64,000 bases of DNA from Deltaproteobacteria bacterium. GTDB lineage: Bacteria > UBA10199 > JACPAL01 > JACOUP01. Location of the stretch: assembly GCA_016177765.1 (NCBI GenBank), contig JACOUP010000003.1, positions 95,384 through 159,383 of the forward strand, in the 5' to 3' direction. The stretch's first letter is position 1, and the number at the start of each line of letters is the position of its first letter. This document shows positions 2,422 through 46,488 of this stretch, one piece after another. Made by a program: the position numbers and the translations under genes. Under the pieces are notes generated by a model. That model searched no databases, was not told the origin of the DNA, and saw only the letters and a program-made list of their open reading frames with translations.

Positions 2422-2463
2422 AAGACGCAACTTTCCTGCCCGGTGCCGATAAGGAAGGCCGCT

Positions 2464-4119: not shown

Positions 4120-4156
4120 GTACCGGGTACCTTTTGGCCAAAAGGTACCCGGTACC
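4119..4156. repeat. Perfect 38-nt palindrome GGTACCGGGTACCTTTTGGCCAAAAGGTACCCGGTACC (copy 1); possible bidirectional hairpin between convergent genes
   Basis: Self-complementary over all 38 nt. An identical copy lies at 25571-25608. Overlaps the TAG of the ORFan (4117-4119). Followed by three tandem AAATG(G/C)CC-like units and a degenerate half-site GTGCCGGGTAC (4179-4189). Confidence 0.9.
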
Positions 4157-4196
4157 GAAATGCCGAAATGGCCAAATGGTGCCGGGTACCTACGAT

Positions 4197-13718: not shown

Positions 13719-15193
13719 GGTTGCGCAAGAAAAATCAATTGGTCCCGATACGCCTCAGGAAGGATGTTGACTGCGAGACGCCGGTTTCTCTTTTTCAGAA
13801 ACTGAGATCGCCGGGGCCGTCATTTTTATTGGAGAGTGTTGAGGGGCAGGAAAAGTGGGCTCGGTACAGTTTTATCGGTTTGGAGCCTTTGGCCCTGTTC
13901 CGGAGTAAAGGCGATCGTGTACACCTTGACATCGCCGGACGGGAATCGAAAAAACGGGTCAAAGACCCACGGGTCGAGGACCCTTTCAAGGAGTTGGAGA
14001 AACTCTTTCATTCCTATTCGGTTGCCCTTGATTCATCGGAGGTGAGTCATTTGCCCCGCTTTTTTGGCGGGGCGGTTGGCTATCTTTCCTACGATATGGT
14101 CCGGTTCTTTGAAAAACTGCCTCGCCATGGCCGGGATGATCTCCAACTCCCCGATTCCATTTTCATGATCCCGCGGGTTTTGCTTATTTTTGACAATATT
14201 CGGCACACGCTGGAGATCGTCGGGTTTGCGGAGAGGGGGGAGGAGAAGAAGGTGGAGGCGCGCCTGAAGGAGATTTCGGAGAAGATTGATCAAGGGGGAA
14301 GCGGGTGGCGAGGGGAACTCCCCCGCCAATCGGGGGAGATGTCCCATAGGGACAGAGAGGGCGGTCAGGGCGCCCCTACAAAATTGAATTGGTCCCCCGC
14401 CGCTTTTCAAAAAGGGGTTCGGCGGGTCAAGGAGTATATCCTGGCGGGGGATGTGACGCAGACCGTTTTGTCGCTTCGGGAGTCACGGGATTATTCCGGG
14501 GATCCGTTTCATCTCTACCGGTCGTTACGTCGCCTGAACCCGTCTCCCTACATGTTCTTTTTCGATTTTGGTGACCTTCAACTGGTCGGGGCCTCTCCGG
14601 AGACGATGGTTCGGTTGGAGGAGGGACAGTTGACTCTTCGTCCGATCGCTGGCACACGGCCAAGGGATCCTGACCCGATCAAGGATGCCGCCCTGGAAAA
14701 AGAACTGTTGAATGATCCCAAGGAAAAGGCGGAACATATTATGCTCGTTGATCTGGGGAGGAACGATCTGGGACGGGTCGCCCGCACAAAGACGGTGACG
14801 GTGGACCAGCTGATGATTGTGGAGAGGTACTCCCATGTCCGGCACCTGGTTTCCAACGTCCGTGCCGAACTGGCCGACGGGAAAAACGCCTTTGACGTGA
14901 TCCGGGCAACCTTTCCGGCCGGGACGCTCAGTGGTTCCCCCAAAATCCGGGCGATGGAGATTATTGAAGATCTGGAGCCGACCCATCGTGGACCGTACGG
15001 CGGGTGCGTCGGCTATTTTGGTTTTTCGGGCAATATGGATATGGCGATCACCATCCGGTCTGCCGTGATTCACAACGGGCGGATTCATATCCAGGCGGGG
15101 GCCGGGATTGTTGCCGATTCAGACCCGGGACGGGAGTATGAGGAATGTAGGAACAAGGCCAAAGGGGTGCTCGATGCTCTTGATGATCGATAA
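13715..15193 (+). CDS. trpE: Anthranilate synthase component I TrpE
   Basis: Chorismate-binding signature ([31 protein letters not shown]). GTG start overlaps the upstream TGA. Confidence 0.95.
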
Positions 15194-15746
15194 TTACGAT
15201 TCTTTTACCTACAACCTCGTCCAGTATTTTCTGGAACTGGGAGAAGAGGTGAAGGTTTACCGCAATGACGAAATCACCCTTCGGCAGATTGAGAGAAAGA
15301 AACCAGCGAAGCTGGTGATCTCACCGGGACCTTGCTCTCCCAAAGAGGCCGGGATTTCCGTGGCGGCGATCAGGAAATTTCAGGGGAAGATTCCGATCCT
15401 CGGGGTCTGTCTGGGGCATCAGTCGATGGCGGAGGCGCTGGGGGGGAAGGTGATCCGCGCCCCTCGTCTGATGCACGGGAAGACCTCGCCGATTCTGCAC
15501 GACGGCAAGACCCTGTTTACCAGTTGCGAGAACCCGTTTGAGGCGACACGGTACCACTCTCTCATTGTTGAGAGAAAAACCCTGCCGGATTGTTTTGAAG
15601 TCTCTGCCTGGACCGCCGAACAAGAAATTATGGGGATCCGCCACAAAAAAATCCTGATGGAAGGGATCCAGTTTCATCCTGAATCGATCCTGACGCTGGA
15701 GGGGAAGAAAATTTTAAGGAACTTTCTCGAATTATGCCGTCGCTAG
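15174..15746 (+). CDS. trpG: Anthranilate synthase component II (glutamine amidotransferase) TrpG
   Basis: [18 protein letters not shown], catalytic ILGVCLGHQ and FHPES. Start at the internal ATG 15174, a 20-nt overlap with trpE. Confidence 0.95.
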
Positions 15747-16717
15747 AAACAGCATTGCGGGAGATCATGTCCGGCCGGATGCCGGAGGGAGAGGTTTCCT
15801 CCTTCCTCACGACACTTCGGGACCGGGGTGAAACCGTTGAAGAAGTGACTGCGGCGGCCTCGGTGATGAGAGAATTTGCCGTCAAGAGTGGCTGGTCTCT
15901 GGAGGAGGGGGTCGATACCTGCGGCACCGGAGGGGATCAGAAGGGGACCTTCAATATTTCAACGGCCGCCGCCTTTGTGGTGGCCGGGGCTGGGGTCAAG
16001 GTGGCAAAACATGGAAACCGGAGCGTCAGCTCCCAGTGCGGGAGCGCCGATCTCTTGGAGGCGTTGGGGGTGAAGATCGATTTGCCCCCCGAGTCTGTTA
16101 AAAAATGTGTCGACGACACCGGGATCGGTTTCTTTTTTGCCCCGCGGTACCATCCGGCGATGAAAAATGTGGCGGCGGTCCGGAAAAAAATCGGCACCCG
16201 GACTATCTTTAATCTCTTGGGACCGCTTTTGAATCCGGCCGGCGTCAGGCACCAGGTGATCGGCGTTTTTGATCAAAAGTGGATCGAACCGATGGCCCGG
16301 GTGGCGGCGAGGCTTGGCTCCAGTCATGTTCTTGTGGTTCATGGGGAGGATGGGCTTGATGAAATCACGCTGACCGGCCCAACGACTGTTGCCGAATTTA
16401 AAAATGAGAGGGTGATTCACCCAAAAATTTCTACCTTTGTCGTTCAACCGGAAGATTTCGGTTTTAAACTCTGTTCTCTGGAAGATTTAAGGGGAGGGGA
16501 TGCCAAAGAGAATGCTTCGACCCTGAAGGCTGTTCTAGAAGGACTTGAGGGGCCGATCCGCGACGTGGTGATCCTGAATGCCGCGGCCGCTTTAGTTGCG
16601 GTGGGTCGTGCCGAGGATTGGCATCAGGGGGTTCTATTGGCGAAACGTTCTCTGGATCATGGGACGGCCCTCAACTGTTTGCAAAAGATGGTGGAGGTTT
16701 CCAATCGTGATTCTTGA
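15734..16717 (+). CDS. trpD: Anthranilate phosphoribosyltransferase TrpD
   Basis: [17 protein letters not shown] and KHGNRSVSS motifs; 327 aa. Confidence 0.95.
16410..16424. repeat. GGGTGATTCACCCAA motif copy inside trpD, in a different reading frame from the copies in the giant ORFs
   Basis: Exact 15-mer shared with 55584-55598. Read here as R-V-I-H-P-K. Confidence 0.6.
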
Positions 16718-17525
16718 TAAGATTTTAAAATACAAAAAAGAAGAACTGGAATCCCTCAAGCGTCGCCATTCCTTGAAAGACGTTGAAAAAGAGGCGGCTG
16801 ACCAGAAACCGGCCCGTGATTTTATGGGGGCCTGTAGGGGCGGTTCGCGAACCGCCCGTACCCGAATCATCGCCGAAATCAAAAAGGCCTCCCCCTCGGC
16901 AGGGGTGATCCGTGAAGATTTTGATCCCCTTCGTCTGGCCTCGACTTACGAAGAAAACGGGGCGGCGGCACTCTCCGTTTTGACGGACGAGCATTTCTTT
17001 CAAGGGTCTCTCGAACATTTAAAGAAGATTCGCAAGGCGATGGGCCTTCCGCTCTTAAGAAAAGATTTTGTCTTTGACGAGTATCAAATTTTTGAGGCCC
17101 GGGCCGCAGGGGCCGATGCGGTCCTGCTCATCGTCAGGATTCTGGAAAAGGCCCAGTTGAAGGATTATCAGGCCATGGCCATGGAGTTGGGAATGGCGGC
17201 GCTGATCGAGGTGCATGATGAAAAGGAGATGGGAATTGCTCTGGATTTGAATTCTCCTTTGGTAGGGATTAACAACCGTGATTTGGACACGTTGAAGGTT
17301 GATTTGGAAACGACCGAGAAATTGATGAATTTTGTAGGGGCGGCCCCCGTGCCTGCCCCTACATTTATCTCCGAATCCGGCATCTCCTCCCGTGCCAATA
17401 TTGAAAGACTGCAGAAGGTTGGCGTTCATGCCTTTCTGGTAGGGGAGATCTTGCTCAGGGAGAAAAATGTTGGGTACAAGTTAAAAGAACTCTTGGGACA
17501 GACCTCTCCCCGTCCCTCTCCTTAG
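16707..17525 (+). CDS. trpC: Indole-3-glycerol phosphate synthase TrpC
   Basis: [12 protein letters not shown]..., IAEIKKASPS, INNRDL motifs. GTG at 16707 has GGAGG 9 nt upstream and overlaps the trpD stop. The last codons and the TAG lie inside a palindromic element. Confidence 0.9.
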   Translation: MILDKILKYKKEELESLKRRHSLKDVEKEAADQKPARDFMGACRGGSRTARTRIIAEIKKASPSAGVIREDFDPLRLASTYEENGAAALSVLTDEHFFQGSLEHLKKIRKAMGLPLLRKDFVFDEYQIFEARAAGADAVLLIVRILEKAQLKDYQAMAMELGMAALIEVHDEKEMGIALDLNSPLVGINNRDLDTLKVDLETTEKLMNFVGAAPVPAPTFISESGISSRANIERLQKVGVHAFLVGEILLREKNVGYKLKELLGQTSPRPSP

Positions 17526-17559
17526 CTAAGGAGAGGGTGGCCGGAGGCCGGGTGAGGTC
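17501..17559. repeat. CCCTCTCC / GGAGAGGG / GGGTGAGG palindromic element, copy 1 (trpC-trpF junction)
   Basis: 24-nt perfect palindrome CCCTCTCCTTAGCTAAGGAGAGGG (17514-17537), then GGCCGGAGGCC and GGGTGAGG. Outer arms are GACCTC/GAGGTC. Confidence 0.8.
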
Positions 17560-17570
17560 TGAACACAACT

Positions 17571-18188
17571 ATGATCTTCGTCAAGGTTTGCGGCATTACC
17601 AATCTCGATGACGCGCTCGATGCGGTTGAATTCGGCGCCGATGCCGTTGGGTTTAATTTTTACAAAGACAGCCCTCGTTATATCGATCCCGAGAGGGTTT
17701 TGGAAATCCTGGAAGATCTTCCCCCGGCGGTCGCCAAGGTCGGTGTTTTTGTGAATGAGAAAGAAGAGGCGGTCAAGGGGATCTCCCAGTTTCTCTCCCT
17801 CGATTTTCTCCAGTTTCACGGAGATGAGACCCCTTACTATTGTGAACAGTTTGCGACCCCTTACTGGAAGGCGTTCCGTTTGAAGGATGAGCAGACGCTG
17901 GAATTGATCGGGAAGTACAAGCCGGATGCCTTTCTGATCGATGCGTATGTTCAAAAGATGTGGGGGGGGACAGGGGTGACGGCCCATTGGGATCTGGCGG
18001 CCCGTGTAAAAGAAAAAGGACGTATCATTTTGGCGGGTGGGTTGAGGCCGGAGAATGTTGAGATGGCAATTGCCACCGTCAAACCGTATGGTATTGATGT
18101 CTGCTCCGGTGTGGAGGAGAAACCGGGCAGAAAGGATCATTACAAACTGGAAGAATTTTTAAGAAAGGCGAAAGGTGCGACTACCTGA
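17571..18188 (+). CDS. trpF: Phosphoribosylanthranilate isomerase TrpF
   Basis: [15 protein letters not shown]..., [15 protein letters not shown] motifs; 205 aa. Confidence 0.9.
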
Positions 18189-19347
18189 TAAGCACGGGCA
18201 TTTCGGTATTTACGGCGGCCGCTATGTCGCCGAGACCTTGATGCCGGCCTTGAAGGGGTTGGAAGCGGCTTATCGCAAGATTGTTTCTTCCCGGTCCTTT
18301 AAGGAGGAGCTTCTCTATTATCAAAAACATTATGTTGGCCGGCCGACGCCGCTCTACTATGCCGAACGATTGACCCAAAAAGCAAAAGGGGCCCGCCTTT
18401 ATTTAAAACGGGAGGACCTTTGTCATACCGGGGCCCATAAGATCAACAACACCTTGGGCCAGTCTCTCTTGGCGAGAAGGATGGGGAAGAAGCGGGTCAT
18501 CGCGGAGACGGGGGCCGGTCAGCATGGAGTGGCGACCGCCACGATGGCGGCGTTGTTGGGCCAAGAGTGTGTCGTCTACATGGGTTCGGAAGATATCAAA
18601 CGCCAGGAGCCGAATGTTTTTCGAATGAAGTTACTTGGAGCAAAAGTTATTCCGGTCCAATCCGGGTCAAAGACCTTAAAGGATGCCCTGAATGAGGCGC
18701 TTCGGGATTGGATCACGAACATCGAGACCACCTATTATTGCATCGGTTCGGTGGCGGGACCGCACCCGTACCCGATGATGGTCCGGGATTTTCAATCGGT
18801 CATCGGTCGTGAGGTCAAACAACAGGCGCTGAAGCGACCTGATTATCTTGTTGCCTCTGTCGGTGGTGGCTCCAACGCGATGGGGCTTTTTTATCCTTTC
18901 TTGCAGGACAGGCGGGTTCGGATGATCGGTGTGGAGGCGGCTGGCAGTGGTCTTTCTTCGGGCCGTCATGCGGCGACGCTGGTGGCGGGATCCGTCGGGA
19001 TCCTCCATGGTTCCAAGTCGTATCTCCTTCAGGACCGGTTTGGTCAGGTGACCGAGACCCATTCCATCTCTGCCGGGCTTGATTATCCAGGGGTTGGTCC
19101 CGAACACAGCTATTTAAAGGATACCCGGAGGGTTCAGTACGTTGCCGTCACCGACAAAGAGGCCCTCGCGGCGTTTCATCTTTTGACGGAAGAGGAGGGG
19201 ATCATCCCGGCACTCGAATCGGCCCATGCTATTGCCTATGCGATGAAACTGGCCCGTCGTCTTCCGAAGACCAAGACGATCGTTATCAACCTCTCCGGCC
19301 GGGGGGATAAGGATTTGGGGACGATTGTCCACCATAAAACCACTTGA
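18175..19347 (+). CDS. trpB: Tryptophan synthase beta chain TrpB
   Basis: [22 protein letters not shown]-lysine motif [20 protein letters not shown] start overlaps trpF by 14 nt. Confidence 0.97.
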
Positions 19348-19386
19348 AAACTAGCCCCGGTTCTGACATTAATCAAAGAGATTCTC

Positions 19387-19469
19387 TCCTCCCCCTTGAG
19401 GGGGGAGGATAAAGGAGAGGGTGGTCCTGTGGTCACCCTCCCCTTAGTCCCCTCCCATCAAGGGAGGGG
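19387..19469. repeat. Cluster of three GC-rich hairpins related to the CCCTC/GAGGG element family (trpB-ispG spacer)
   Basis: TCCTCCCCC-ttgag-GGGGGAGGA (19387-19409); GGAGAGGGTG...CACCCTC (19414-19440); CCCCTCCC-atcaa-GGGAGGGG (19449-19469). Confidence 0.75.
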
Positions 19470-19487
19470 GGAGTTTACCGGGGATTT

Positions 19488-20612
19488 ATGAAACAGCGAA
19501 AGACACGCGAAATCCGGATCAAAAATTTAAAGATTGGCGGGAAGAACCCGATCGCCGTCCAGTCGATGGCAGCCACCAAAACAACCGATATTCCGGCGAC
19601 CCTTCGTCAGGTGAAGATCCTGGAGAAGGCGGGGGCGGATCTCATACGGATTGCGATCGACAACATGCGGGATCTGGAGGCGCTCTCCGAGATCAGCAGA
19701 GAGACCGACAAACCGCTCTCGGTCGACCTTCAGGAAAATTGGAAATTGGCGGAGCCGGTTGCCCCCTATGTCCACAAGATCCGTTATAACCCGGGACACC
19801 TTCACCATATTGAGAAAGACAAAACGGTCGAACAAAAAGTCGCCTGGATTGCGGCGATTGCGGGGAAGCATGATCTCGCGATCCGGATCGGTGTGAACTG
19901 CGGTTCCGTCGCGCCGGACTTTTTGGCCAAATACCCGACAGAAGAAGAAGCGATGATTCAATCGGCTGCCTACCACTGCAAGCTTTTAGATGACTTGGGT
20001 TTTACAAACTACTGTGTCTCTCTCAAAGATTCTGACCCCAAGAAGGTGATCGATATCAATAAAAAATTTGCCGCGTTGCGGCCGGACGTGCCGTTGCATT
20101 TGGGGGTCACCGAAGCGGGCCTCCCGCCGGAAGGGGTCATCAAGACGCGTGTTGCCTTTGAACAGTTGATCAGTCAGGGGATCGGCGACACGATTCGCGT
20201 TTCTTTAACAGTCCCTTTTGATAACAAGGGGGAGGAGATCAGGGTCGGTCGGCAGATTTTGGATGATATCGAGCATGGCCGTTTTCGATCGGTCCCCGAT
20301 TTTGGGGATAAAAAGCTGAATATCATTTCCTGTCCCTCTTGCTCACGTGTCGAAAACGAAAAATTTGTCGATCTGGCGATCAAGGTGAGGGAGATGACCC
20401 AGTATGCGAAGGAACACCGGCTCACGATTGCCATCATGGGGTGTCGTGTGAACGGCCCGGGGGAGACGGATGACGCCGACCTCGGCCTCTGGTGCGCCCC
20501 GACGGTGGTGAATCTCAAAAAGAAGGATGAATTAATAGGAACTTATTCTTACGAAGAGATTATTCCTCGTCTGAAGCAGGAAGTTGACCGGCTGATTGCC
20601 CAACAAAAGTAG
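19488..20612 (+). CDS. ispG: 4-hydroxy-3-methylbut-2-en-1-yl diphosphate synthase IspG (GcpE)
   Basis: 374 aa with TIM-barrel N-domain and Fe-S cysteines ([17 protein letters not shown]). Confidence 0.95.
20553..20601 (+). repeat. Direct repeat A (3' end of ispG) flanking the AbiE islet
   Basis: 43/49 nt identical to 22036-22084 by manual alignment, with a perfect 20-nt core ATTCCTCGTCTGAAGCAGGA. Confidence 0.85.
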
Positions 20613-20624
20613 CTCCATTTCATA

Positions 20625-20659
20625 TTGACAGATAGTATTAAAATATAATAATATCTGTC
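20625..20659 (+). promoter_or_regulatory. Sigma-70-type promoter (TTGACA-N18-TAATAT) overlapped by the inverted repeat GACAGATA-N17-TATCTGTC (candidate AbiEi operator)
   Basis: -35 at 20625-20630, -10 at 20649-20654, inverted repeat arms at 20627-20634 and 20652-20659. The abiEi ATG at 20663 has no SD, so the mRNA may be leaderless. Confidence 0.5.
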
Positions 20660-20662
20660 TTT

Positions 20663-21280
20663 ATGAAGATAGATGCCAAAATATTCTTGGCCCTGCAATC
20701 TCTCATTCCAAAACATCGCGGGATTTTTACCGTTAGTGACTTGAGCAATCTGTTGTTGGCAAAAAGGGAGGTCGAGGTCCAACAAAAACTGAAACCTTTT
20801 TTGAAAGAAAAAATTCTAAACCGTTTTTGCCGTGGGATCTATGTTACCCAAAATTTTGATTTGGACGATCTCTCCCAGCGAATTTGTCCCGACTCTGCCA
20901 TCAGCTTTGGATCGGTGCTTGCAAAAGAGAGGCTCATCGGATCGATCCCGCAGAAAGCGGTCTACGCGGTGAAAATCGGCAAGACACGGATTTATAAATC
21001 TCCATTGGGGCAGGTGGTGCATTTGGGATTTGCAGGGAGCGGCTTGAAAATGTGGTTTGGATATGAAATGGGAACAAACGGCATTCGGTATGCCGATGCA
21101 GAAAAAGCATTTTTGGACACCCTTTACTTTTATCAAAAGGGGCACAAATTTTCATTTAATCTCTATTCGGATATTCAGATTGATCGCTTGAATCAAAAAA
21201 AACTGCGGCGGTATTTGGGCCGATACAAAAATCCAAAATTTAGGACATTTGTCCAAGGAGTTCTGGATGGATACCGTTAA
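20663..21280 (+). CDS. AbiEi-family type IV toxin-antitoxin antitoxin / transcriptional regulator
   Basis: N-terminal wHTH-like segment GIFTVSDLSNLL...LKEKILNRFCRGIYV (AbiEi_4-type rGxY motif). Sits immediately upstream of, and overlaps, an AbiEii-like gene. Confidence 0.6.
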   Translation: MKIDAKIFLALQSLIPKHRGIFTVSDLSNLLLAKREVEVQQKLKPFLKEKILNRFCRGIYVTQNFDLDDLSQRICPDSAISFGSVLAKERLIGSIPQKAVYAVKIGKTRIYKSPLGQVVHLGFAGSGLKMWFGYEMGTNGIRYADAEKAFLDTLYFYQKGHKFSFNLYSDIQIDRLNQKKLRRYLGRYKNPKFRTFVQGVLDGYR

Positions 21281-22019
21281 ATCTGACGAATCGTTGCGTG
21301 TCTTGATCATCAATCATCTGGGGAAACAGCTGGGAGAGCACGCCATTCTTAAAGGAGGGATGGTACTGAGGCTTCTCGATTGCCCGCGCACCACAAACGA
21401 TCTCGACTATATTTTCGTTCCGTTCAAATCCAAGAAGGAGATCGTGCCGCTAGTTTTGGAAGTATTAAAGGAGCTGGAAGAGGTGACCGTGCAACATCGT
21501 TTGCATTCTACCAACGCGCAATTTGATGTCACCCTAAAAAATGAGTTCGGGACCTTTCGAACGCAACTTGAAGTCAATGTTTCGAATCATTGCGAAACAG
21601 AGCCGCTGACAACGGGGGATTTTGCACTGCAGTTCCAACAATCCCCCCAAATTATCCGTGTCATGCGGTTTGATGTGATGCTGGCTCACAAACTGGCCGC
21701 TTGGAATGAACGGCGTCTCATGCGTGATTTGTACGATGCCTATTTTATCTACAAGAATCTGAACATCACTCCCAACCTGGATCTATTACAAGGCCGTTTG
21801 CAAGATGTTCATTACGCCAAGCGGATGTCCGGAAGATCGCTCCCCAAAAAGATGAGCCTTGAAGAGTTTTGGCAATTGTTAGCCTCGGAATTAAAGACTC
21901 TGACACCCGCCGATCTCGAAAATGAACTTCGAGATTCGTTAGATACCCATCAGCTATTGGGCCTCGACAAAAAAATCACGATTGCTCTGACGCAGATGAT
22001 GGATCAAGTGGCCATCTAG
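21267..22019 (+). CDS. Nucleotidyltransferase AbiEii/AbiGii toxin family protein
   Basis: ILKGGMVLRLLDCPRTTNDLDYIF matches the LKGGTAL...R.T.DLD NTase signature of DUF1814/AbiEii. AAGGAG lies 6 nt upstream of ATG 21267. Confidence 0.7.
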   Translation: MDTVKSDESLRVLIINHLGKQLGEHAILKGGMVLRLLDCPRTTNDLDYIFVPFKSKKEIVPLVLEVLKELEEVTVQHRLHSTNAQFDVTLKNEFGTFRTQLEVNVSNHCETEPLTTGDFALQFQQSPQIIRVMRFDVMLAHKLAAWNERRLMRDLYDAYFIYKNLNITPNLDLLQGRLQDVHYAKRMSGRSLPKKMSLEEFWQLLASELKTLTPADLENELRDSLDTHQLLGLDKKITIALTQMMDQVAI

Positions 22020-22035
22020 CAGGCACCGCCATGGG

Positions 22036-22084
22036 GGAGAGATCATTCCTCGTCTGAAGCAGGAGGTTGATCGCCCGATTGCCC
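22036..22084 (+). repeat. Direct repeat B (displaced remnant of the ispG 3' end)
   Basis: See repeat A. Extends in frame to TGA at 22103-22105, overlapping the 3' end of the convergent 721-aa gene. Confidence 0.85.
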
Positions 22085-22091
22085 GGAAGGC

Positions 22092-24257
22092 TTACTTCCT
22101 GATTGCCTCTTGACGCAGAGTTTCAAGATAGAGGTCCGCCCTCTCGGGCGAAACCCTCCGGTAGTTTGCCAACGCCTTATCCTGCCATTCCTTTATTTTA
22201 GCGGCCCGTTCTTCTAGTTCCTTTGCCGGGACCCCTCTCTTGGTTTGCATCTGAATGGCGAAGGCTTGGTCATTCTGGAGGTCCGCCGCCTGTTCATAAA
22301 GAGTGGCGTCCTCATAAATCCTGACACCCCTTTCCGGATCTTTAAGATCGTTGATGGCGGTGAGGGCGGCGGCTTCGACTTTTCCGAGGCGAAGGTAGTC
22401 GGTAATCGCCCCTTCAGGATCTCCATCAGCGGATTTGAGATCGGCTAGATTTTCCGGATTGTCCCCGGAAAACCTCCTGGCAATATCTGGTTTGCCTTCT
22501 TGAAGGGCAAAGCGGAAGAGGTCTTGTTCCGCCTCCCCCATTTCCAAGAGGGCATTGACCATCCCTTCCGTATCTTCCCCGTTATCGGCAAAGAGGTGCG
22601 AGGCAAGATCTTCCAATAGGGTTGAATTATCGAAGGAATGCCCTGTCTTTTGAAAGTAGGCCTTGGCGAGGAGGTACTGATCCTTGGGCTGAAGGACGGG
22701 AACCCCTTTTTCATTGGTTGTTTGAATGCACCTTTTCATGTACTCCGGATTTCGGGAGAGAAGGACCAAGCGGATGATTTCCTCAGTATCCCCTCGGGCC
22801 TCGGCCAGGCTGATAAAGTCCGAGAAAAAATTCTGCTGTGCATTAAGGGGGATTGGTTTCCCCTCATGATAGTCGGAGAGATTGAAATAATTGTGAGGCA
22901 TAGTCTCATCTGGAGGCCAGAAGTTCATGGAACCGCCGTCCCCCTGCGGTTCAAAGAAATCGAGGCGCCCTTGGTTCAAGACCCATCCTTCCTGAGACCG
23001 TGCAAATTCTACTGCAACAGGAAAGAGGATTCTGTTACCGGTAAAGGGGAGGTAGTTCTGGCCGCCATCGACGGTTTCTCCATAAACCCCGACGGTGATC
23101 TTCCCATCGTCTCTTGTTTGGGGGAGTTGTATCTCCGAGTAAAATCGTTCGACGACGTTGGTTTCCAGGGAAAGACTCCCCCCAAATTGTTTCAAGGTGA
23201 GCTGGGTTCCCCCCGGGGTATCTGCATAAATGGAATCAAAGGTGGGGTTTTGTAGTTCTACCATAACGTTATTCCCTTCCCGCAGGCTGAATTTGAGTCT
23301 CGGCTCGATAGCGTAGTTATTTTCTCTAGCGAGGATTTCAATAGTACTTGCTTGATAATCTCTGGGCCGGATGGCACCGGGGGTCATCTCCCCAAAGGAA
23401 AAGAAGGTAGGCTTGGAGACAGTGAATATCCCGTAACTCTTGGCGATATCCTCCCCGTTGCCGGCAGGGGGCTCGCCAAAGCCGAAGCGTGAGCGGGGGG
23501 AAAAACCGAACCGGTCCGGGTCGATCAGGACAACGTCTCCATTTTCGACAAAGAGAGAATTGTCCTCTCTCTCTGCCGGTTGGATGAGAAGCCTTTGACT
23601 GGTTGTCACCACAGGGTAACCATCAGGACCGGGGATCACGCGGAAACTTTTATTGGAAACCAGGGTGAAGCTCCCCGATGAGGTCGTTAATTGAACCGTT
23701 CCCTCGGGCCTCGCCCCGTCGCGCGAAAGGGCAGCTTTTTCCACCTGGAGGGAAAATTGTTCCTCCACCAACTCACCATTTTCAAGGAGTGGTTGTTCCC
23801 CGTCACTGCGGAGTGTTCCTTGGGTGACCAGCATCGTCCCGTTATTATCCTGAAGGGTTCCTCCCTCGGTTACGCTCCAGTCGTGGGGATAGAGCCCCGG
23901 CTGGATAATCAGACCGGCCGAGGTGGTGCACGGTTTGCTGGTAACCTGATCCAGCGTCGCCCCAGCCGGAAGTAGTTCCATGGGAGGGGAGGGTTTGAGT
24001 TGGCTCAGATAACTTTGGAGCGTCCGGACCATCTCCCGCCGTTGGGGGGCGGGGAGTTCATCAAATCTTTCAAAGGTATCGCGGTTCTGGCTGACAAAAA
24101 AACCGATCCCTTTCTCTTTTTCCAGACGTCCTTCCATCTCTGCCAACTTCAACTCATCAATCTCCCCATCCGGTTCCTTCCCGAGCCCGTAGCGATCGAG
24201 CGATTCAAAGAGCCGGCGGAGTTCGGGGGAGAACTGTCTGTAAGAAATGGGGGCCAT
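22092..24257 (-). CDS. Hypothetical protein (ORFan, 721 aa, no signal peptide, helical C-terminal third)
   Basis: 2.17-kb uninterrupted ORF, 38 nt downstream of the YD-repeat lipoprotein gene on the same strand. No motif recognised. Confidence 0.7.
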   Translation of the reverse strand: MAPISYRQFSPELRRLFESLDRYGLGKEPDGEIDELKLAEMEGRLEKEKGIGFFVSQNRDTFERFDELPAPQRREMVRTLQSYLSQLKPSPPMELLPAGATLDQVTSKPCTTSAGLIIQPGLYPHDWSVTEGGTLQDNNGTMLVTQGTLRSDGEQPLLENGELVEEQFSLQVEKAALSRDGARPEGTVQLTTSSGSFTLVSNKSFRVIPGPDGYPVVTTSQRLLIQPAEREDNSLFVENGDVVLIDPDRFGFSPRSRFGFGEPPAGNGEDIAKSYGIFTVSKPTFFSFGEMTPGAIRPRDYQASTIEILARENNYAIEPRLKFSLREGNNVMVELQNPTFDSIYADTPGGTQLTLKQFGGSLSLETNVVERFYSEIQLPQTRDDGKITVGVYGETVDGGQNYLPFTGNRILFPVAVEFARSQEGWVLNQGRLDFFEPQGDGGSMNFWPPDETMPHNYFNLSDYHEGKPIPLNAQQNFFSDFISLAEARGDTEEIIRLVLLSRNPEYMKRCIQTTNEKGVPVLQPKDQYLLAKAYFQKTGHSFDNSTLLEDLASHLFADNGEDTEGMVNALLEMGEAEQDLFRFALQEGKPDIARRFSGDNPENLADLKSADGDPEGAITDYLRLGKVEAAALTAINDLKDPERGVRIYEDATLYEQAADLQNDQAFAIQMQTKRGVPAKELEERAAKIKEWQDKALANYRRVSPERADLYLETLRQEAIRK

Positions 24258-24295
24258 CGCTAAGTAGGTATTTTACGTCAAACGCCCTTATTTTA

Positions 24296-25372
24296 CTACA
24301 GTGAGTCATCGAGACTCAAAGGTTGCTGGATCGGGGTGTAATCCTCTTCCAAGATGGTGACCTGTGAATTGAGGTCTCCACCATGCCCCTTGTAGGTCAA
24401 CGGTTTTCCCTTGTCATCGTAGGTCCATTCTCTGGAATAGGTTACCGGTGAGGCGAGGTCTCCACTATGCCACTTGTGGGTCAACGGCCTCCCCTTGTCA
24501 TCGTAGGTCCATTCTCTGGAATAGGTTACCGGTGAGGCGAGGTCTCCACAGGTTACCGGTGAGGCGAGGTCTCCACTATGTTCCTTGTAGGTCAACTTAT
24601 TTCCCTTGTCATCGTAGGTCCATTCGCTGGAAGAGGTTAACGATGAGTTGAGGTCTCCACTATGTTCCTTGTAGGTCAACTTATTTCCCTTGTCATCGTA
24701 GGTCCATTCTCTGGAAGAGGTTACCGGTGAATTGAGACCTTTCTCATGTTCTTTATAGGTCAGGATTCCCCCTTTGTTGTTATAAAGGGATTCCAAGGAT
24801 CCGGTGACTCTGGAGGAGAGTGCCGGAACGGGTGGCCCTTGTCTGAGGGGGATTACAATTTTACCGATAGAGGTGAGGAGCCTCCTCTCCTGATCCCATG
24901 TCGTTTCAACGACCCCATTGGCATACACGGAACGTCCGTTGAACAGACCGACTTGTTGATGAAACTCTGTCTTCTTGAGGGGGAGCCAATAGTAGACCCC
25001 ATCGCAGTTAAAATCCTTGAATCCGTCGTCATTTTCCCATTTTGTGCTCCCGGGGTTTACTGTTTTATCATTATCGTTACAATCAGTCTTGTTGGCGACA
25101 TAACCGGCCGGGGGGGTTCCCTCTTTTGAATCGAGAGGGGATAAGGGGTCACCAAACCCATCCCCGTCTTTATCGGCAAAGTACTGGAAGGCCTGTTGGG
25201 TCCCGTTGCCCGGTTGTTGGGTGCCGGGGGGAGGGGTTGTTTCATCCCCCTTTTTTTCTTCTTTTTTATCCTCAGGCTTTGTCTCTTCCTTACTGCCATC
25301 ACACCCAGTCCAGTAAAGGAAGAAGCAGAGAAGGGGGAGGAGGAAAAAGAGGCTTCTTACCGGTTGTTTCAT
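24296..25372 (-). CDS. Putative lipoprotein with a MopE-like Cys/Asp metal-binding motif and about five YD-type 28-aa repeats
   Basis: Start at ATG 25372 (GGAG 8 nt upstream) gives MKQPVRSLFFLLPLLCFFLYWTGC, a signal peptide plus lipobox-like TGC. Also DKDGDGFGDP...CNDNDKTVNPG, and repeats SREWTYDDKGxxLTYKEHSGDLxSxVT. The track's longer N-terminus runs through intergenic palindromes. Confidence 0.75.
   Translation of the reverse strand: MKQPVRSLFFLLPLLCFFLYWTGCDGSKEETKPEDKKEEKKGDETTPPPGTQQPGNGTQQAFQYFADKDGDGFGDPLSPLDSKEGTPPAGYVANKTDCNDNDKTVNPGSTKWENDDGFKDFNCDGVYYWLPLKKTEFHQQVGLFNGRSVYANGVVETTWDQERRLLTSIGKIVIPLRQGPPVPALSSRVTGSLESLYNNKGGILTYKEHEKGLNSPVTSSREWTYDDKGNKLTYKEHSGDLNSSLTSSSEWTYDDKGNKLTYKEHSGDLASPVTCGDLASPVTYSREWTYDDKGRPLTHKWHSGDLASPVTYSREWTYDDKGKPLTYKGHGGDLNSQVTILEEDYTPIQQPLSLDDSL
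24353..24790 (-). repeat. 84-bp tandem repeat array (about 5 units) encoding the YD-type repeats
   Basis: The AGGTCCATTC unit recurs at 24421, 24505, 24616 and 24700 (period 84; one unit is 111 = 84+27). Confidence 0.85.
24524..24577 (-). repeat. 27-bp tandem duplication (26/27 identical) inside one repeat unit
   Basis: GGTTACCGGTGAGGCGAGGTCTCCACA / GGTTACCGGTGAGGCGAGGTCTCCACT. Encodes GDLASPVTCGDLASPVTY. Confidence 0.9.
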
Positions 25373-25401
25373 AGAGTGATCTCCTTGGTAATATAACTTA
25401 A

Positions 25402-25417
25402 AGCAAGCTTCATGCCA
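25402..25417 (-). promoter_or_regulatory. Sigma-54-type promoter TGGCAT-GAAGC-TTGCT upstream of the lipoprotein/721-aa operon
   Basis: The minus strand reads TTGGCATGAAGCTTGCTT. GG and GC have the canonical spacing and 15/16 match YTGGCACGrNNNTTGCW. The predicted TSS near 25391 leaves a ~19-nt leader containing GGAG. Confidence 0.55.
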
Positions 25418-25463
25418 AAACATCCCTGTCCTGTCACAAAAACATCTTTTTAATTTTGATAGG

Positions 25464-25507
25464 TTACACGCGTGCCTGGCACAAATGACCCTCGTGGTGC
25501 CAGGCAC
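25464..25507. repeat. Hairpin family TTAYACGCGTGCCTGGCAC-loop-GTGCCAGGCAC, copy 1
   Basis: Arms at 25472-25482 and 25497-25507 (11 bp) with a 14-nt loop. 18/19 left-flank identity with the copy at 42325. Confidence 0.8.
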
Positions 25508-25520
25508 CAAGAGATAAGAT

Positions 25521-25535
25521 TTCTCAAATTGAGAA
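25521..25535. promoter_or_regulatory. Palindrome TTCTCA-AAT-TGAGAA (candidate enhancer/UAS), ~110 bp upstream of the sigma-54 -24 element
   Basis: Perfect inverted repeat. The same half-sites occur twice at 33079-33111. Confidence 0.5.
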
Positions 25536-25570
25536 AGAGGCGTCGGAATTTTGACAACTTCTTTCGTTAC

Positions 25571-25608
25571 GGTACCGGGTACCTTTTGGCCAAAAGGTAC
25601 CCGGTACC
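25571..25608. repeat. Perfect 38-nt palindrome GGTACCGGGTACCTTTTGGCCAAAAGGTACCCGGTACC (copy 2)
   Basis: Identical to 4119-4156. Lies between the divergent lipoprotein gene and trpA. Confidence 0.9.
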
Positions 25609-25656
25609 CAAACTTCGTCTTGTTTTGTCGGAGCGGATTGGTTAGTTTGCCTGCCA

Positions 25657-26397
25657 ATGAAAAAGGCCCTCATCCCATTTTTTACCGCCGGGGACCCCAG
25701 TCTCACAATCACCGAAAAACTGGTGTTGATGGCAGAGGAGGCCGGTGCGACTATTGTAGAGTTGGGGGTTCCATTCTCCGACCCGATGGCCGACGGTCCG
25801 GTGATCCAGGCCGCTTCCGAAAGGGCCCTCAAAAAAGGGGTCACGCTGGAAAAGGTCTTGGCGTTGGTCCGGTCGATCCGCAAGAAAAGTTCTGTTCCCC
25901 TCCTCCTGATGGGGTACTACAACCCACTCTACCACTTTGGTCTCAGAAGGTTTGCCAAAGAGGCCAGGCGTTCAGGGGTCGATGCGATTTTGGTGGTTGA
26001 TCTCCCGCCGGAAGAATCGTTTGAATTAGATCGTGAGTTGAAAAAGGTTGGGATTGTTCTTGTCTATCTGCTGGCCCCGACCAGTTCTACGGAAAGAATC
26101 AAGATTGTCTGCCGGAAGGCGCGCGGCTTTATCTATTTTGTCTCAGTGACCGGTATTACCGGCGCCTCGTTGAAGGGGGAAGGGGCGATTCGCCGGCAGA
26201 TCCAGAAGATCAAGAGACAAAGCCATCTGCCGGTGGTGATCGGTTTCGGTATTACCCGACCCGAACAGGCAAAGAAAATGGCTCGCCTGGCGGATGGGGT
26301 GGTGGTCGGGAGCGCGTTGGTGAACCTTGTTCATCGAACACACGGTTCGGTTGCTGCGGCCCAAAAAATGGTGGCGAATTTCCGCAGGGCTGTGTAG
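25657..26397 (+). CDS. trpA: Tryptophan synthase alpha chain TrpA
   Basis: LIPFFTAGDPS..., ELGVPFSDPMADGPVIQ, GFGI... motifs; 246 aa. Confidence 0.95.
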   Translation: MKKALIPFFTAGDPSLTITEKLVLMAEEAGATIVELGVPFSDPMADGPVIQAASERALKKGVTLEKVLALVRSIRKKSSVPLLLMGYYNPLYHFGLRRFAKEARRSGVDAILVVDLPPEESFELDRELKKVGIVLVYLLAPTSSTERIKIVCRKARGFIYFVSVTGITGASLKGEGAIRRQIQKIKRQSHLPVVIGFGITRPEQAKKMARLADGVVVGSALVNLVHRTHGSVAAAQKMVANFRRAV

Positions 26398-26404
26398 ATT
26401 GAAA

Positions 26405-26428
26405 CGCCGACCGAATAAATTCGGCGGC
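26405..26428 (+). terminator. Hairpin downstream of trpA (possible intrinsic terminator); two further hairpins follow at 26451-26466 and 26476-26500
   Basis: CGCCGACCGAAT-aaa-ATTCGGCGGC followed by an A/T-rich tract (TAATAAATATAAATT). There is no clean U-run. Confidence 0.4.
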
Positions 26429-26512
26429 TAATAAATATAAATTCCTCTGGAATTCCGGAAGGAATTTGAAAAATTAGCCCACGAATTCATTCGTTGGGCT
26501 TGAGCAGGTACA

Positions 26513-33078: not shown

Positions 33079-33111
33079 TTCTCATTTTGAGAAATTTTCT
33101 CATTTTGAGAG
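33079..33111. promoter_or_regulatory. Two tandem palindromes TTCTCA-TTT-TGAGAA / TTCTCA-TTT-TGAGAg (18-nt phasing) plus a half-site at 33067-33072; candidate enhancer (UAS)
   Basis: Read directly. Centres lie ~147 and ~129 bp upstream of the -24 GG at 33233. Confidence 0.5.
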
Positions 33112-33199
33112 GGATTTTGGGTTCGACTGTCGCTTCAGCCGGAGGCTGATCCGTCCTTTGGCGGACACCATGTCCCTTTATTTTCAATAAGTTATAAGT

Positions 33200-33210
33200 G
33201 TACCCGGTAC
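33200..33210. repeat. GTACCCGGTAC, the 11-bp palindromic half-unit of the 38-nt palindrome
   Basis: Same 11-mer as 4146-4156 and 25598-25608. Located 22 nt upstream of the sigma-54 -24 element. Followed by TGATCC-gaa-GGATCA (33213-33227). Confidence 0.6.
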
Positions 33211-33231
33211 GGATGATCCGAAGGATCAGAT

Positions 33232-33247
33232 TGGCACCCCCCTTGCA
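33232..33247 (+). promoter_or_regulatory. Sigma-54-type promoter TGGCAC-CCCCC-TTGCA
   Basis: Perfect match to both conserved blocks with correct spacing. It is intergenic and immediately upstream of the 963-aa secreted protein gene. Caveat: the predicted TSS (~33258) leaves only 3-4 nt before ATG 33262. Confidence 0.55.
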
Positions 33248-33261
33248 TGATAATGGAGGTG

Positions 33262-36153
33262 ATGAAGCGATTTCTCCTCAGATCCCCCCTCCTTATTATA
33301 CTGGGCCTCGTGCCCCTTTATGGGGGGAGCGCCTTTTCACAGATGATCTCACCGGGGGCGAGGGTTAATTCTTCCTCTTCGTCGGCAACAAGAGTTGGTT
33401 CCTCCGGGATGAGGATCAATCAGGCGGCGCCACCGGTGGCAACGTCCAATTCCCGACCGTCGGTTACTGTCAGTGGTGCTACCACCGCCAGTGGGGCTAC
33501 CACCTTGAAGCTCTTGGGCAACACCAACAGAACCAACACCGATAAAGTCCAGAGTTCACAGGGTGAGATAAGGATTAATACGGTGACCTCGTCAACTCCC
33601 GCAACAGGCATGACCATTCGGGATATCCCCGCGGCCAATATTGTTACCACCACGCCTCCTCCCACACCCTCGGCGATAGTGATTCCCGGCGGGGCGACGA
33701 TGGCGGCACCGGGTTCTGTTTTGGTTCCTCCCACGGTCACGATTCCGGCCGGCGGGGGTGCCACAACGGTTATAATCCCCCCATCGGTGACATCAACAAT
33801 CCAGAATATCCCCGCGGCAAATATTGTGACCACCGCACCTCCCGCATCCGGAGTGGCGGCCGGTGCCATCAACGTCAATGGATCAATCGTAGACCGGATT
33901 ACCGAGGGTGTGGGCAACATCTTTAATACGGTGGTTGACACCGTTGCCGATTTCCTGACCTCCGGCGACAACCGGATTTCCGACATCGTGACCACAGTCA
34001 ATACGGGTGGAACAACGACCACTCCTCCCCCCGCTTCAACCGGAGGGGCTATCTACGAAGGGGGAGGCAGAAATTTTCTGATCGAGACGGGCGGGACGAC
34101 GATGGCCGGTGGTACAGGGGGAGGGACGACAACGACAGGGGGCGGCTCCGGGGGTGTTTCCACAACCACTCCCCCACCGGTATGTACCGGGAGCCCGGGC
34201 GACCCTCCGGCGTGCCATGCTCAAGGGGCCGATTCCCAGCCAACCTCACAACCGACCTGTGATACCGCCTATCCGGAGACCTGTGCCCCCGCCAGTCAAC
34301 CGACCTCTATGCCGGTCGGTTCCTTCTGCGTTGGCGGCGCTCCGCCTGTTTTTCAGGAAACCTTGGTGACTTCGGGGCAGGGGATCGATCAAGTGGCGGT
34401 TCACGAAGGGGTTTGGGTGGATGGGATCCCTTCACAGGGTTCAATTTCGTGGTTTAGGATCAATCCGGAAGGACTGTTCCAGGCCTACCGGGGCATGACC
34501 GCCACGAGCGGGCCTGTCGGTTCCACGCAAACGGAGGCGGATATCCATCTTTTCACCCTCGGGGATTTTTTACAAAACGATCCGGAGATCGACCTTCTGA
34601 CGATGACCCCGTATTATTTGTTCAGCGCCTTTTCACCGGAGTACAATTTTTCCCCGCAGAATTTTCCATCCGTGACCAGTCATCCTGCTTTTATGACCGG
34701 TTTGGAGATAGGGGACGCGGGAGAGAGTGAATATGCGGCGGCCTGGGAATCCGGGACTGTCTTAGTCGGCAGGGTGCCTCACCCTGGGGGGTCTGAACAA
34801 CCAAAGACGATGACCCTTCTGTCCCAGAATAACGACAAGATTTACGATTTTGCAAAAATGTCGGTTTCAGGGGCCGGAGGGGATTTCCTCATAACCCTCA
34901 CAAGGAATCTGCAAAATCAGAAGGTACAACTCATTTATGTTGGCACAGGCCCTCATTTTTTTCAGGGTGAGCCGGTTTCCCGCTTTTTGGAGATCGATAC
35001 CGTTGGCACCCCTCGGCGGATGGCTGTTACGGGGAGCCGGGTTGTGGTTGTGACCAATGACAATACCACCCGGAAGAGTTATCTCTACACGGTCCCGATC
35101 AGTTATTCCCCCGCAGAGGATCGCCTTTTGAAAGGGGAGGTCAGCTCTCTGGAGATCCCCGGCGGTGTCGGTTTTGTAGCGGTGGCGGACTTGAACCGGG
35201 ACGGGCGGGACGATCTGGTTTTGTACGTCGTGGATCCGACCACTTCGGCTTCGAACAGCACAGGGTCGATCCAGATCTTTTATCCGGATTCAAGCGGTGT
35301 GTTCCGATCGGATCAGGTTCTTTCCCATCCTGTTCCCGCCGGCAAGATTGTGCGGGATCTGGATGCAGGGCCGGTCGGTTCCGGGATCGGCATCGGTTAT
35401 CTGACAGGTGGGGCAACGGCCGTTGCTTCCCGGTTTAGCGGCAGTGGAGGAGATTACCGGGTTGAGTCGACCGATACGGTCGCTGTGCCGCCAACCCTTG
35501 AGGTCTCTTTCCTGCAGGTTTCCTGTCCAGGTGGTTCAGCAGGCGGAACGGTGCCAGGTCCTTATGGCGAGACAACCCTCCCGCCACCCCCTCCAGCCTC
35601 TGTATTGCCACCTCCTCTGAAGGATCAGGTCATTACCCTGGAACCGATCAAAAAAAGCTGTATCCAGGGGGAAGAGGTCACCATCGCTATTCCGGTCGAT
35701 AAGGTCGACAATCCTGAGCTCAAGGCGCTGGCAATCAAGAAGGATGCCGTTATCGATTCCACACTCACCCAGATGAGCGGCCCTTATCTGGGAGAGATTG
35801 ACAGGACACGCGAGTGGAAACTCGAGGCGGTTCCCCAGGAGGGAAGGGTTCTGGCGGCCAAGGTTCGAAGCCAGGATTTCAAATCAGCCCTCTCCGCCTT
35901 CGGGACGATGGGAGAAGATGGGGCCCTGGTTGTCAAAACCAAGTCTTCCGAGGTGACCCCCTCCGATCCCTTTGAGGTGAAGATCACCTGTGGTCTTGTG
36001 CCGATGAATGCCAAAGAACCCACTTATGTCGCTGATCTTGTCTATACGGCCAAATTGCCGGACGGGACAAGCCTCATCCAGCCGATTCAACTGGACGCCG
36101 AATTGATGAAACTGGGGGGCGGCGGCGGCTGTAGCCTTATTCCAGAACAGTAA
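33262..36153 (+). CDS. Large secreted protein (963 aa): signal peptide, Thr/Gly/Pro-rich low-complexity region, Cys-rich linker, FG-GAP/VCBS-like segment
   Basis: Start moved to ATG 33262 (GGAGGTG upstream), giving MKRFLLRSPLLIILGLVPLYGGSAFSQ. Repeated IPAANIVTT(T/A)PPP. ADLNRDGRDDLVLYV is FG-GAP-like. C-terminus is ...LGGGGGCSLIPEQ*. Confidence 0.75.
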   Translation: MKRFLLRSPLLIILGLVPLYGGSAFSQMISPGARVNSSSSSATRVGSSGMRINQAAPPVATSNSRPSVTVSGATTASGATTLKLLGNTNRTNTDKVQSSQGEIRINTVTSSTPATGMTIRDIPAANIVTTTPPPTPSAIVIPGGATMAAPGSVLVPPTVTIPAGGGATTVIIPPSVTSTIQNIPAANIVTTAPPASGVAAGAINVNGSIVDRITEGVGNIFNTVVDTVADFLTSGDNRISDIVTTVNTGGTTTTPPPASTGGAIYEGGGRNFLIETGGTTMAGGTGGGTTTTGGGSGGVSTTTPPPVCTGSPGDPPACHAQGADSQPTSQPTCDTAYPETCAPASQPTSMPVGSFCVGGAPPVFQETLVTSGQGIDQVAVHEGVWVDGIPSQGSISWFRINPEGLFQAYRGMTATSGPVGSTQTEADIHLFTLGDFLQNDPEIDLLTMTPYYLFSAFSPEYNFSPQNFPSVTSHPAFMTGLEIGDAGESEYAAAWESGTVLVGRVPHPGGSEQPKTMTLLSQNNDKIYDFAKMSVSGAGGDFLITLTRNLQNQKVQLIYVGTGPHFFQGEPVSRFLEIDTVGTPRRMAVTGSRVVVVTNDNTTRKSYLYTVPISYSPAEDRLLKGEVSSLEIPGGVGFVAVADLNRDGRDDLVLYVVDPTTSASNSTGSIQIFYPDSSGVFRSDQVLSHPVPAGKIVRDLDAGPVGSGIGIGYLTGGATAVASRFSGSGGDYRVESTDTVAVPPTLEVSFLQVSCPGGSAGGTVPGPYGETTLPPPPPASVLPPPLKDQVITLEPIKKSCIQGEEVTIAIPVDKVDNPELKALAIKKDAVIDSTLTQMSGPYLGEIDRTREWKLEAVPQEGRVLAAKVRSQDFKSALSAFGTMGEDGALVVKTKSSEVTPSDPFEVKITCGLVPMNAKEPTYVADLVYTAKLPDGTSLIQPIQLDAELMKLGGGGGCSLIPEQ

Positions 36154-42324: not shown

Positions 42325-42372
42325 TTATACGCGTGCCTGGCACCAGACCCCCCCTTTGGTGCCAGGCACGCG
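42325..42372. repeat. Hairpin family TTAYACGCGTGCCTGGCAC-loop-GTGCCAGGCAC(GCG), copy 2, directly after the prfB stop
   Basis: 14-bp stem (42330-42343 / 42359-42372) with a 15-nt loop and no U-tract. The track's ORF start at 42333 runs through it. Confidence 0.8.
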
Positions 42373-42428
42373 GGGAACCTTCGGGATTAAGGCAACTTTT
42401 TGCCCTTTCCGCCGAGAACCGCCCCACG

Positions 42429-46415: not shown

Positions 46416-46488
46416 AGGGTGACAAGAAAATTGAAAAAAGGCTTGCGGGAAGCCCTCCCTTTCTATACGCCTTGTCAGCAAGAGGCGT

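Follow-up and report, generated by a model that had tools for sequence, protein, structure and literature searches.

Do all of the palindromes in the 284-bp spacer between a lipoprotein gene and trpA belong to one dedicated control region, or do elements of different origin meet there? We analyzed this spacer within a 64-kb stretch of DNA (64,000 nucleotides, termed the window) from an uncultured groundwater bacterium. The preliminary description of the locus had placed in it a sigma-54 promoter, a TTCTCA palindrome, a hairpin and a perfect 38-nt palindrome, and direct reading together with a repeat search recovered all four features at these positions. Our reading is that the spacer is probably a mix, in which a sigma-54 promoter and its activator site stand beside copies of two palindromic repeats that are scattered through the genome. 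The spacer and its flanking genes comprise the following features:

25373–25656: spacer, between the lipoprotein ATG (25372, minus strand) and the trpA ATG (25657)
24296–25372, minus strand: lipoprotein gene, 358 aa, with a signal peptide, a ...WTGC lipobox, a MopE-like metal-binding motif and YD-like repeats
22092–24257, minus strand: near-orphan gene, 721 aa, second gene of the operon
25657–26397, plus strand: trpA (Pfam Trp_syntA, 1.4e-84), cut off from ispG and the trp operon
25381–25386, minus strand: Shine-Dalgarno sequence AAGGAG, 8 nt before the lipoprotein ATG
25402–25417, minus strand: putative sigma-54 −24/−12 promoter TGGCATGAAGCTTGCT, GG at 25416–25415 and GC at 25404–25403, with a predicted start near 25391
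25390–25418, minus strand: rival sigma-70-like promoter TTGGCA-17-TATATT, overlapping the sigma-54 element
25459–25510: interspersed repeat A, a hairpin with 11-bp arms at 25472–25482 (GTGCCTGGCAC) and 25497–25507 (GTGCCAGGCAC)
25521–25535: putative upstream activator sequence TTCTCAAATTGAGAA of the SypG type, its centre ~137 nt upstream of the predicted start
25571–25608: interspersed repeat B, a perfect 38-nt palindrome made of two units GGTACCSGGTACC around TTTTGGCCAAAA

The sigma-54 element lies a single mismatch from TGGCAC-N5-TTGCW, and the start predicted from it leaves the 19-nt leader with a ribosome-binding site that had been proposed for the lipoprotein gene. The arms of the hairpin are 100% complementary, whereas the CTGGCAC that had been attributed to each arm is present only when the two arms are read on their respective strands. 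When folded as single-stranded DNA, the hairpin yielded −13.8 kcal/mol (z = −3.6), the 38-mer −19.4 kcal/mol (z = −6.1) and the TTCTCA palindrome −4.6 kcal/mol (z = −2.6).

The 721-aa ORF begins 38 nt past the lipoprotein stop codon, as had been stated, and its product matched no Pfam family and no PADLOC entry. Six weak relatives were found for it among 1.84 billion representatives, and its AlphaFold model was unusable (mean pLDDT 38). The designation of the gene pair as an ORFan operon therefore suits this protein but not the lipoprotein, for which about 50 partial relatives were obtained. More distant YD-repeat homologues (P0042, P0044) are located in parAB-serS operons and were uninformative on the promoter, and the window's own proteins had no exact matches on record. 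Within the lipoprotein gene, the YD-like repeats (24434–24687) broke all four Logan assemblies of groundwater metagenome DNA runs, with anomalous depth at this position, and their copy number may vary. Elsewhere in the window, two very large ORFs (1360 and 1371 aa) without a significant Pfam family occupy 42333–50604, and the next ORF, of 1687 aa, extends over 50767–55830.

The candidate sigma-54 promoter has its GG and GC exactly 10 nt apart within TGGCAT-N5-TTGCT and is located on the right strand at a short distance from the gene. Matches with at most one mismatch numbered two in the 64-kb window against 1.2 expected, indicating that the match on its own is not beyond chance and is convincing only through its context and conservation. 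Three relatives of the lipoprotein show 35–37% identity over more than 80% of its length, and the element is kept before two of them: TGGCATGAAATTTGCT lies ~25–37 nt ahead of the lipoprotein start at L001 (protein 36% identical) and TGGAACAACTTTTGCT ~25–43 nt ahead of it at L123 (37% identical), where no DNA similarity to the window besides the sigma-54 element was detected. The conservation count is confined to these two homologues, the third relative (L122) being ambiguous. This retention supports the sigma-54 promoter that had been proposed for the lipoprotein operon, and we regard the promoter as probably real.

Alternatively, the housekeeping sigma factor would use the overlapping TTGGCA-17-TATATT (25418–25390), the sigma-54 likeness being a by-product of TTGGCA. 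This site matches at 10 of 12 positions with a 17-nt spacer, is the sole sigma-70-like site found by the scan in this region and could act alone or alongside the sigma-54 element, whose own match count does not exceed chance. However, transcription from it would start near 25383, within the AAGGAG ribosome-binding site. Furthermore, both L001 and L123 keep the GG-N10-GC core and TTGCT, while their −10 positions, read by eye, become CATTTT and ATTACC (2–3 of 6), and an enhancer fitting the SypG type as far as its consensus is quoted lies at a typical distance from the sigma-54 promoter. We consider this reading unlikely and retain the sigma-54 promoter. A TTCTCA site is absent before the L001 and L123 homologues, and, as both conserve the promoter, promoter and TTCTCA enhancer are not always linked. 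Neither rpoN nor an activator gene was found among the ORFs of the 64-kb window scanned against Pfam. The sequencing runs found to contain this DNA are all DNA runs, with no RNA-seq run among them.

The upstream activator sequence of SypG, a sigma-54 activator of Vibrio fischeri, is given as TTCTCANNNTGMDWN (Ray et al. 2013, quoted in PMC10162802), and TTCTCAAATTGAGAA fits every position specified in the consensus as quoted there. Located at ~−137, TTCTCA-N3-TGAGAA falls within the range of 70–200 bp upstream for activator sites. Three sequences in the 64 kb match this site with one mismatch or none, and each is placed 103–138 nt upstream of a sigma-54 match; sigma-54 matches within the same limit number only two. 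The second of these pairings consists of:

33079–33111: two further putative activator sites TTCTCATTTTGAGAA and TTCTCATTTTGAGAG, 18 nt apart, exact at 33079 and with one mismatch at 33097
33200–33210: single repeat unit GTACCCGGTAC, between these activator sites and the promoter, in DNA missing from the relative
33232–33247, plus strand: perfect sigma-54 consensus TGGCACCCCCCTTGCA, before the gene of a secreted 963-aa VCBS-repeat-like protein (ATG 33262)

Here, the activator sites at 33079 and 33097 are positioned 120–138 nt upstream of the sigma-54 site at 33232. In the closest relative (L254), the homologous gene is preceded by TTCTCATTTTGAGAA and then TGGCATCTTGATTGCA, with the promoter and the start-codon region conserved, a 73-nt gap between activator site and promoter and no GTRCCNGGYAC unit, the general form of the repeat units considered below. 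The fit to the quoted consensus, the pairing with both of the good sigma-54 sites that the window contains and the presence of the site upstream of the homologous sigma-54 site support the regulatory role that had been assigned to the TTCTCA palindrome, and 33079–33247 represents a putative second member of the same regulon. At this second promoter (33232–33264; L254 2799–2831), the start is predicted only ~4 nt before the conserved ATG, an unusual leader with the same geometry in L254, which suggests short-leader or leaderless translation of the mRNA for the 963-aa protein.

Scanning JGI metagenome contigs for an activator site followed 100–130 nt on by TGGCAY-N5-TTGC yielded at least 120 loci with about 103 distinct sequences, where ~5–20 would be expected by chance in the whole collection (an estimate made without a control scan). 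Among the matches listed (at least 120), clustering of the downstream ORFs gave 68 unrelated groups, many of these ORFs encode a signal peptide or a lipobox, and the activator-to-promoter gap peaks at 109–110 nt within the 100–130 nt to which the scan was restricted. A sigma-54 activator is encoded in 11 of the matches listed, for six of them directly beside the site (L130, L143, L159, L163, L189, L190), where the activator genes adjoin a TTCTCA-N3-TGAGAR site and a sigma-54 promoter. The sensor domains of these six NtrC-family activators vary (receiver, PAS/GAF-like, TPR-like), and activators that differ in their regulation may have a single DNA-binding specificity in common at the six loci. 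One activator beside such a site is LuxO/SypG-like, LuxO being the closest paralogue of SypG. A literature search for TTCTCA/TGAGAA with 'enhancer binding protein' returned no paper, and the TTCTCA motif is not present in the text of a paper on the Desulfovibrio sigma-54 regulome. Based on the metagenome loci, the combination of a SypG-type site and a sigma-54 promoter appears to be widespread among environmental bacteria.

Further parts of a dedicated regulatory ensemble had been seen in the GCGTGCCTGGCAC hairpin and in the perfect 38-nt palindrome, a role that our data did not support, as both are multi-copy interspersed repeats in the genome. Each arm of repeat A is an 11-nt palindromic unit GTGCCWGGCAC, and in both repeats the units are 25 nt apart. 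The units of repeat A are located at about −86 and −111, inside the activator-to-promoter loop, and those of repeat B at about −186 and −211, beyond the enhancer. Exact matches to the general unit GTRCCNGGYAC amount to 10 in the window against 0.09 expected, and all ten are intergenic. Besides the spacer, the window contains two larger copies:

4119–4190: second copy of repeat B with a hybrid third unit GGTGCCGGGTACC, filling the gap between the convergent ORF 2443–4119 and ruvA
42330–42372: variant copy of repeat A, with a 16-bp stem and a different loop, directly after the stop codon of a release-factor-like gene

The repeat B copy at 4119–4156 is identical to 25571–25608 letter for letter, and no inverted repeats in the whole 64 kb are stronger than the copies of repeats A and B. 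In the Logan assemblies of the four groundwater runs, contigs end inside both palindromes, with at least 11–14 contigs per element per run, most of which continue into flanks unlike those of the window. The listed repeat-carrying pieces of at least 800 nt have a depth equal to that of the window's own contigs, repeat A is present on at least 11–13 other contigs with the depth of this genome, and the summed depth relative to a single copy is about 14–19x for repeat A (loop included) and about 18–40x for repeat B. The near-identity of the copies, spacer letters included, indicates copying and not independently evolved operator sites. Repeats A and B are REP-like interspersed repeats of GTRCCNGGYAC units, present in tens of copies in the genome. 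The preliminary description had itself held that REP-like elements elsewhere in the genome would speak against its view of the palindromes, and such elements are what we found. Moreover, no unit lies in the activator-site-to-promoter gaps of the matches listed (at least 120 loci of the same architecture), indicating that the repeats are not part of the activator–promoter architecture.

An intrinsic terminator was considered for either palindrome and rejected, as the scan flags neither of them and neither stem is followed by a T-tract; repeat B does have a T-run, but inside its loop and not past the stem. Rfam gave no match at gathering score for the whole window, and a permissive search of the spacer resulted only in hairpin-like microRNA-model matches far below threshold. 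No relevant paper came up in a literature search for the unit sequences.

The gene order around the spacer was compared with that at the nearest TrpA (81% identical), encoded at L124 in a MAG labelled 'Deltaproteobacteria bacterium'. The order there is trpB, ispG, trpA, leuS, with the ispG stop codon 1 nt from the trpA ATG and 12 nt between trpA and leuS. In the window, the end of ispG (20612) and the start of trpA (25657) enclose one block:

20613–25656: block of ~5.04 kb absent from the closest relative L124, containing abiEi/abiEii, the 721-aa gene, the lipoprotein gene and the spacer

As ispG and trpA are 1 nt apart in L124, this block is most simply an insertion; we infer the direction, insertion here and not deletion in the relative, from one close relative. 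The spacer would then most simply represent the right-hand edge of a ~5-kb insertion and not an old divergent promoter region, a point that the preliminary description had missed. The abiEi/abiEii genes are matched by PADLOC and Pfam and have a GC content of 41–46% compared to 53% for the window, whereas the GC content of the two-gene operon is host-like, and the operon may be a separate event from the AbiE part. A search of the insertion junctions found neither a duplication nor an att-like repeat, the best local alignment being weak and rich in gaps. In the four runs, no contig joins ispG directly to trpA or is without the block, which is thus fixed in the sampled populations.

Upstream of abiEi (20613–20662), a promoter TTGACA-17-TAATAT is overlapped by an inverted repeat (GACAGATA / TATCTGTC) that is likely an autoregulation site, and the abiEi ATG at 20663 would be nearly leaderless. 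The location of ispG inside the trp cluster, between trpB and trpA (13715–20612), is shared with the closest relative; in a more distant relative (L125), trpB overlaps trpA and no ispG is present. The trpA–leuS gap (26398–26512) measures 115 nt here compared to 12 nt in the closest relative and contains three hairpins; its segment 26406–26499 is found again elsewhere in these metagenomes, differing by 10 changes and 4 gaps, and represents another repeat family. Upstream of trpA itself, neither a Shine-Dalgarno sequence nor a sigma-70 match of at least 8/12 was found, and the best promoter candidate, a weak TTGGCC-17-CAAACT, begins at the middle of palindrome B (region 25609–25656).

These surroundings bear on whether the repeats, even if selfish in origin, have been co-opted, with repeat A setting the distance or bend between enhancer and promoter in place of an IHF site, and repeat B separating the divergent transcription units as a barrier or supplying the −35-like TTGGCC for trpA. 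An IHF-like site is absent between the enhancer and the first promoter and present at the second one. With repeat A included, the gap at the first promoter amounts to 103 nt, within the range common among the metagenome loci listed (peak at 109–110 nt), and the best trpA promoter candidate, though weak, begins in the centre of repeat B. Nevertheless, what counts as a typical gap is biased, as the scan covered gaps of 100–130 nt only, and the second promoter of the relative has a 73-nt gap and no unit, and we give co-option a low probability.

A dedicated control region in which all four palindromes are operators for the divergent lipoprotein gene and trpA, the implicit view of the preliminary description, is highly improbable. 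In its favour, the palindromes crowd into 284 bp, the units are compatible with the loose GT-N7-AC form of NorR boxes, and the second sigma-54 promoter also has a single unit nearby. Against it, copies that agree fully or almost fully, down to the spacer letters, occur between convergent genes and behind a stop codon, tens of copies exist in the genome, units are absent from at least 120 comparable loci and from the second promoter of the relative, and the region appears to be a recent junction and not a co-evolved control region. NorR is a sigma-54 activator for which three GT-N7-AC boxes lie upstream of the sigma-54 norV promoter, and the units here likewise read GT-N7-AC or GGT-N7-ACC upstream of a sigma-54 promoter. 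However, this motif is low in information, and the NorR likeness was rejected because identical elements lie away from promoters in tens of copies.

The account that we consider likely joins a sigma-54 promoter with a TTCTCA activator site, passenger REP-like repeats and the inserted block 20613–25656. In this account, an NtrC-family activator encoded outside the window would bind the 15-bp palindrome TTCTCAAATTGAGAA at ~−137, loop to the closed sigma-54 holoenzyme complex at −24/−12 and open the promoter by ATP hydrolysis, such that the promoter at 25417–25402 (minus strand) would transcribe the lipoprotein gene and the 721-aa gene. The same activator would probably drive the secreted 963-aa protein at 33262, and, if so, the two targets would constitute a small cell-envelope regulon. 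Sigma-54 dependence, activator binding and the regulon are thereby predicted from the sequence elements and their conservation. The GTRCCNGGYAC repeats would have spread through the intergenic DNA of the genome and be passengers here, where repeat A in the enhancer–promoter loop and repeat B beyond the enhancer would at most alter spacing or local DNA structure. With the block inserted between ispG and trpA, we propose that trpA relies on a weak promoter located within the spacer or close to it.

Promoter and enhancer provide a new example of an already known type, with the same 15-bp motif upstream of a −24/−12 promoter as at the syp locus of Vibrio fischeri, as quoted in PMC10162802 (Ray et al. 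2013). In contrast to the syp locus, the host is an uncultured groundwater bacterium with relatives labelled 'Deltaproteobacteria', and, in place of a polysaccharide locus, the putative targets comprise the lipoprotein, the near-orphan protein and the VCBS-repeat-like protein. The repeats resemble the REP/BIME elements of enterobacteria and pseudomonads in being short G+C-rich palindromes in tens of copies, strictly intergenic, single or clustered and often at gene ends or between convergent genes. They differ from REP/BIME in unit design, as each unit is an 11-nt palindrome in its own right and the distance between units is fixed at 25 nt, and no GTAG is found in the elements, neither as a 5' tetranucleotide nor elsewhere. 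In addition, no RAYT gene or other transposase family was detected among the ORFs of the 64-kb window scanned against Pfam, and the copy studied here sits in a divergent spacer. The left part of the block resembles AbiE (AbiEi/AbiEii) toxin-antitoxin or abortive-infection islets, matching both components, with low GC and a promoter overlapped by an inverted repeat, but differs from them in that our search detected neither an integrase nor a tRNA gene nor a direct repeat at its flanks.

Units 25 nt apart were also observed in multiple copies, mostly non-coding, in unrelated phyla among the matches listed (L002–L121; e.g. L013 7562–7697, L012, L023, L080), and among these matches the 25-nt-spaced GTRCCNGGYAC units appear to be depleted from coding frames in several unrelated phyla. 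The taxa with multi-copy units among the matches listed are Rossellomorea, where tandem arrays of units show a period of 50 bp, Halanaerobium, Acidimicrobiales, Planctomycetes and groundwater MAGs, and many units in other phyla have a WWWWGGCCWWWW spacer resembling that of palindrome B. In the groundwater MAG nzgw370 (L029 6070–6290, L089 745–860), GTGCC-type units are contained in a ~100-nt repeated element found in both orientations; tblastx against the nzgw370 loci gave no matches. A wider proposal, which we regard as doubtful, is that the GTRCCNGGYAC units form one undescribed intergenic element class and that TTCTCA-N3-TGAGAA is a pan-bacterial sigma-54 enhancer code. Such a class may be characterized by the fixed 25-nt spacing, often with an A/T-rich spacer centred on GGCC, and a shared dimeric DNA-binding or mobilising protein might read its units. 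Having entered sigma-54 enhancer–promoter loops of this genome, the units may alter looping, and the enhancer code may serve cell-envelope genes and not be peculiar to Vibrio.

For this spacer, look-alike palindromes could be separated into a regulatory site and genomic repeats by copy number and comparative data alone. The resulting picture predicts that two promoters of an uncultured groundwater bacterium form a regulon for lipid-anchored and secreted proteins, which can be put to the test, and trpA, orphaned from its operon by the proposed insertion, would provide a natural case of a biosynthetic gene needing a new expression route. If the SypG-type motif is as widespread as suggested, it could let activator–target links be read from metagenomes.
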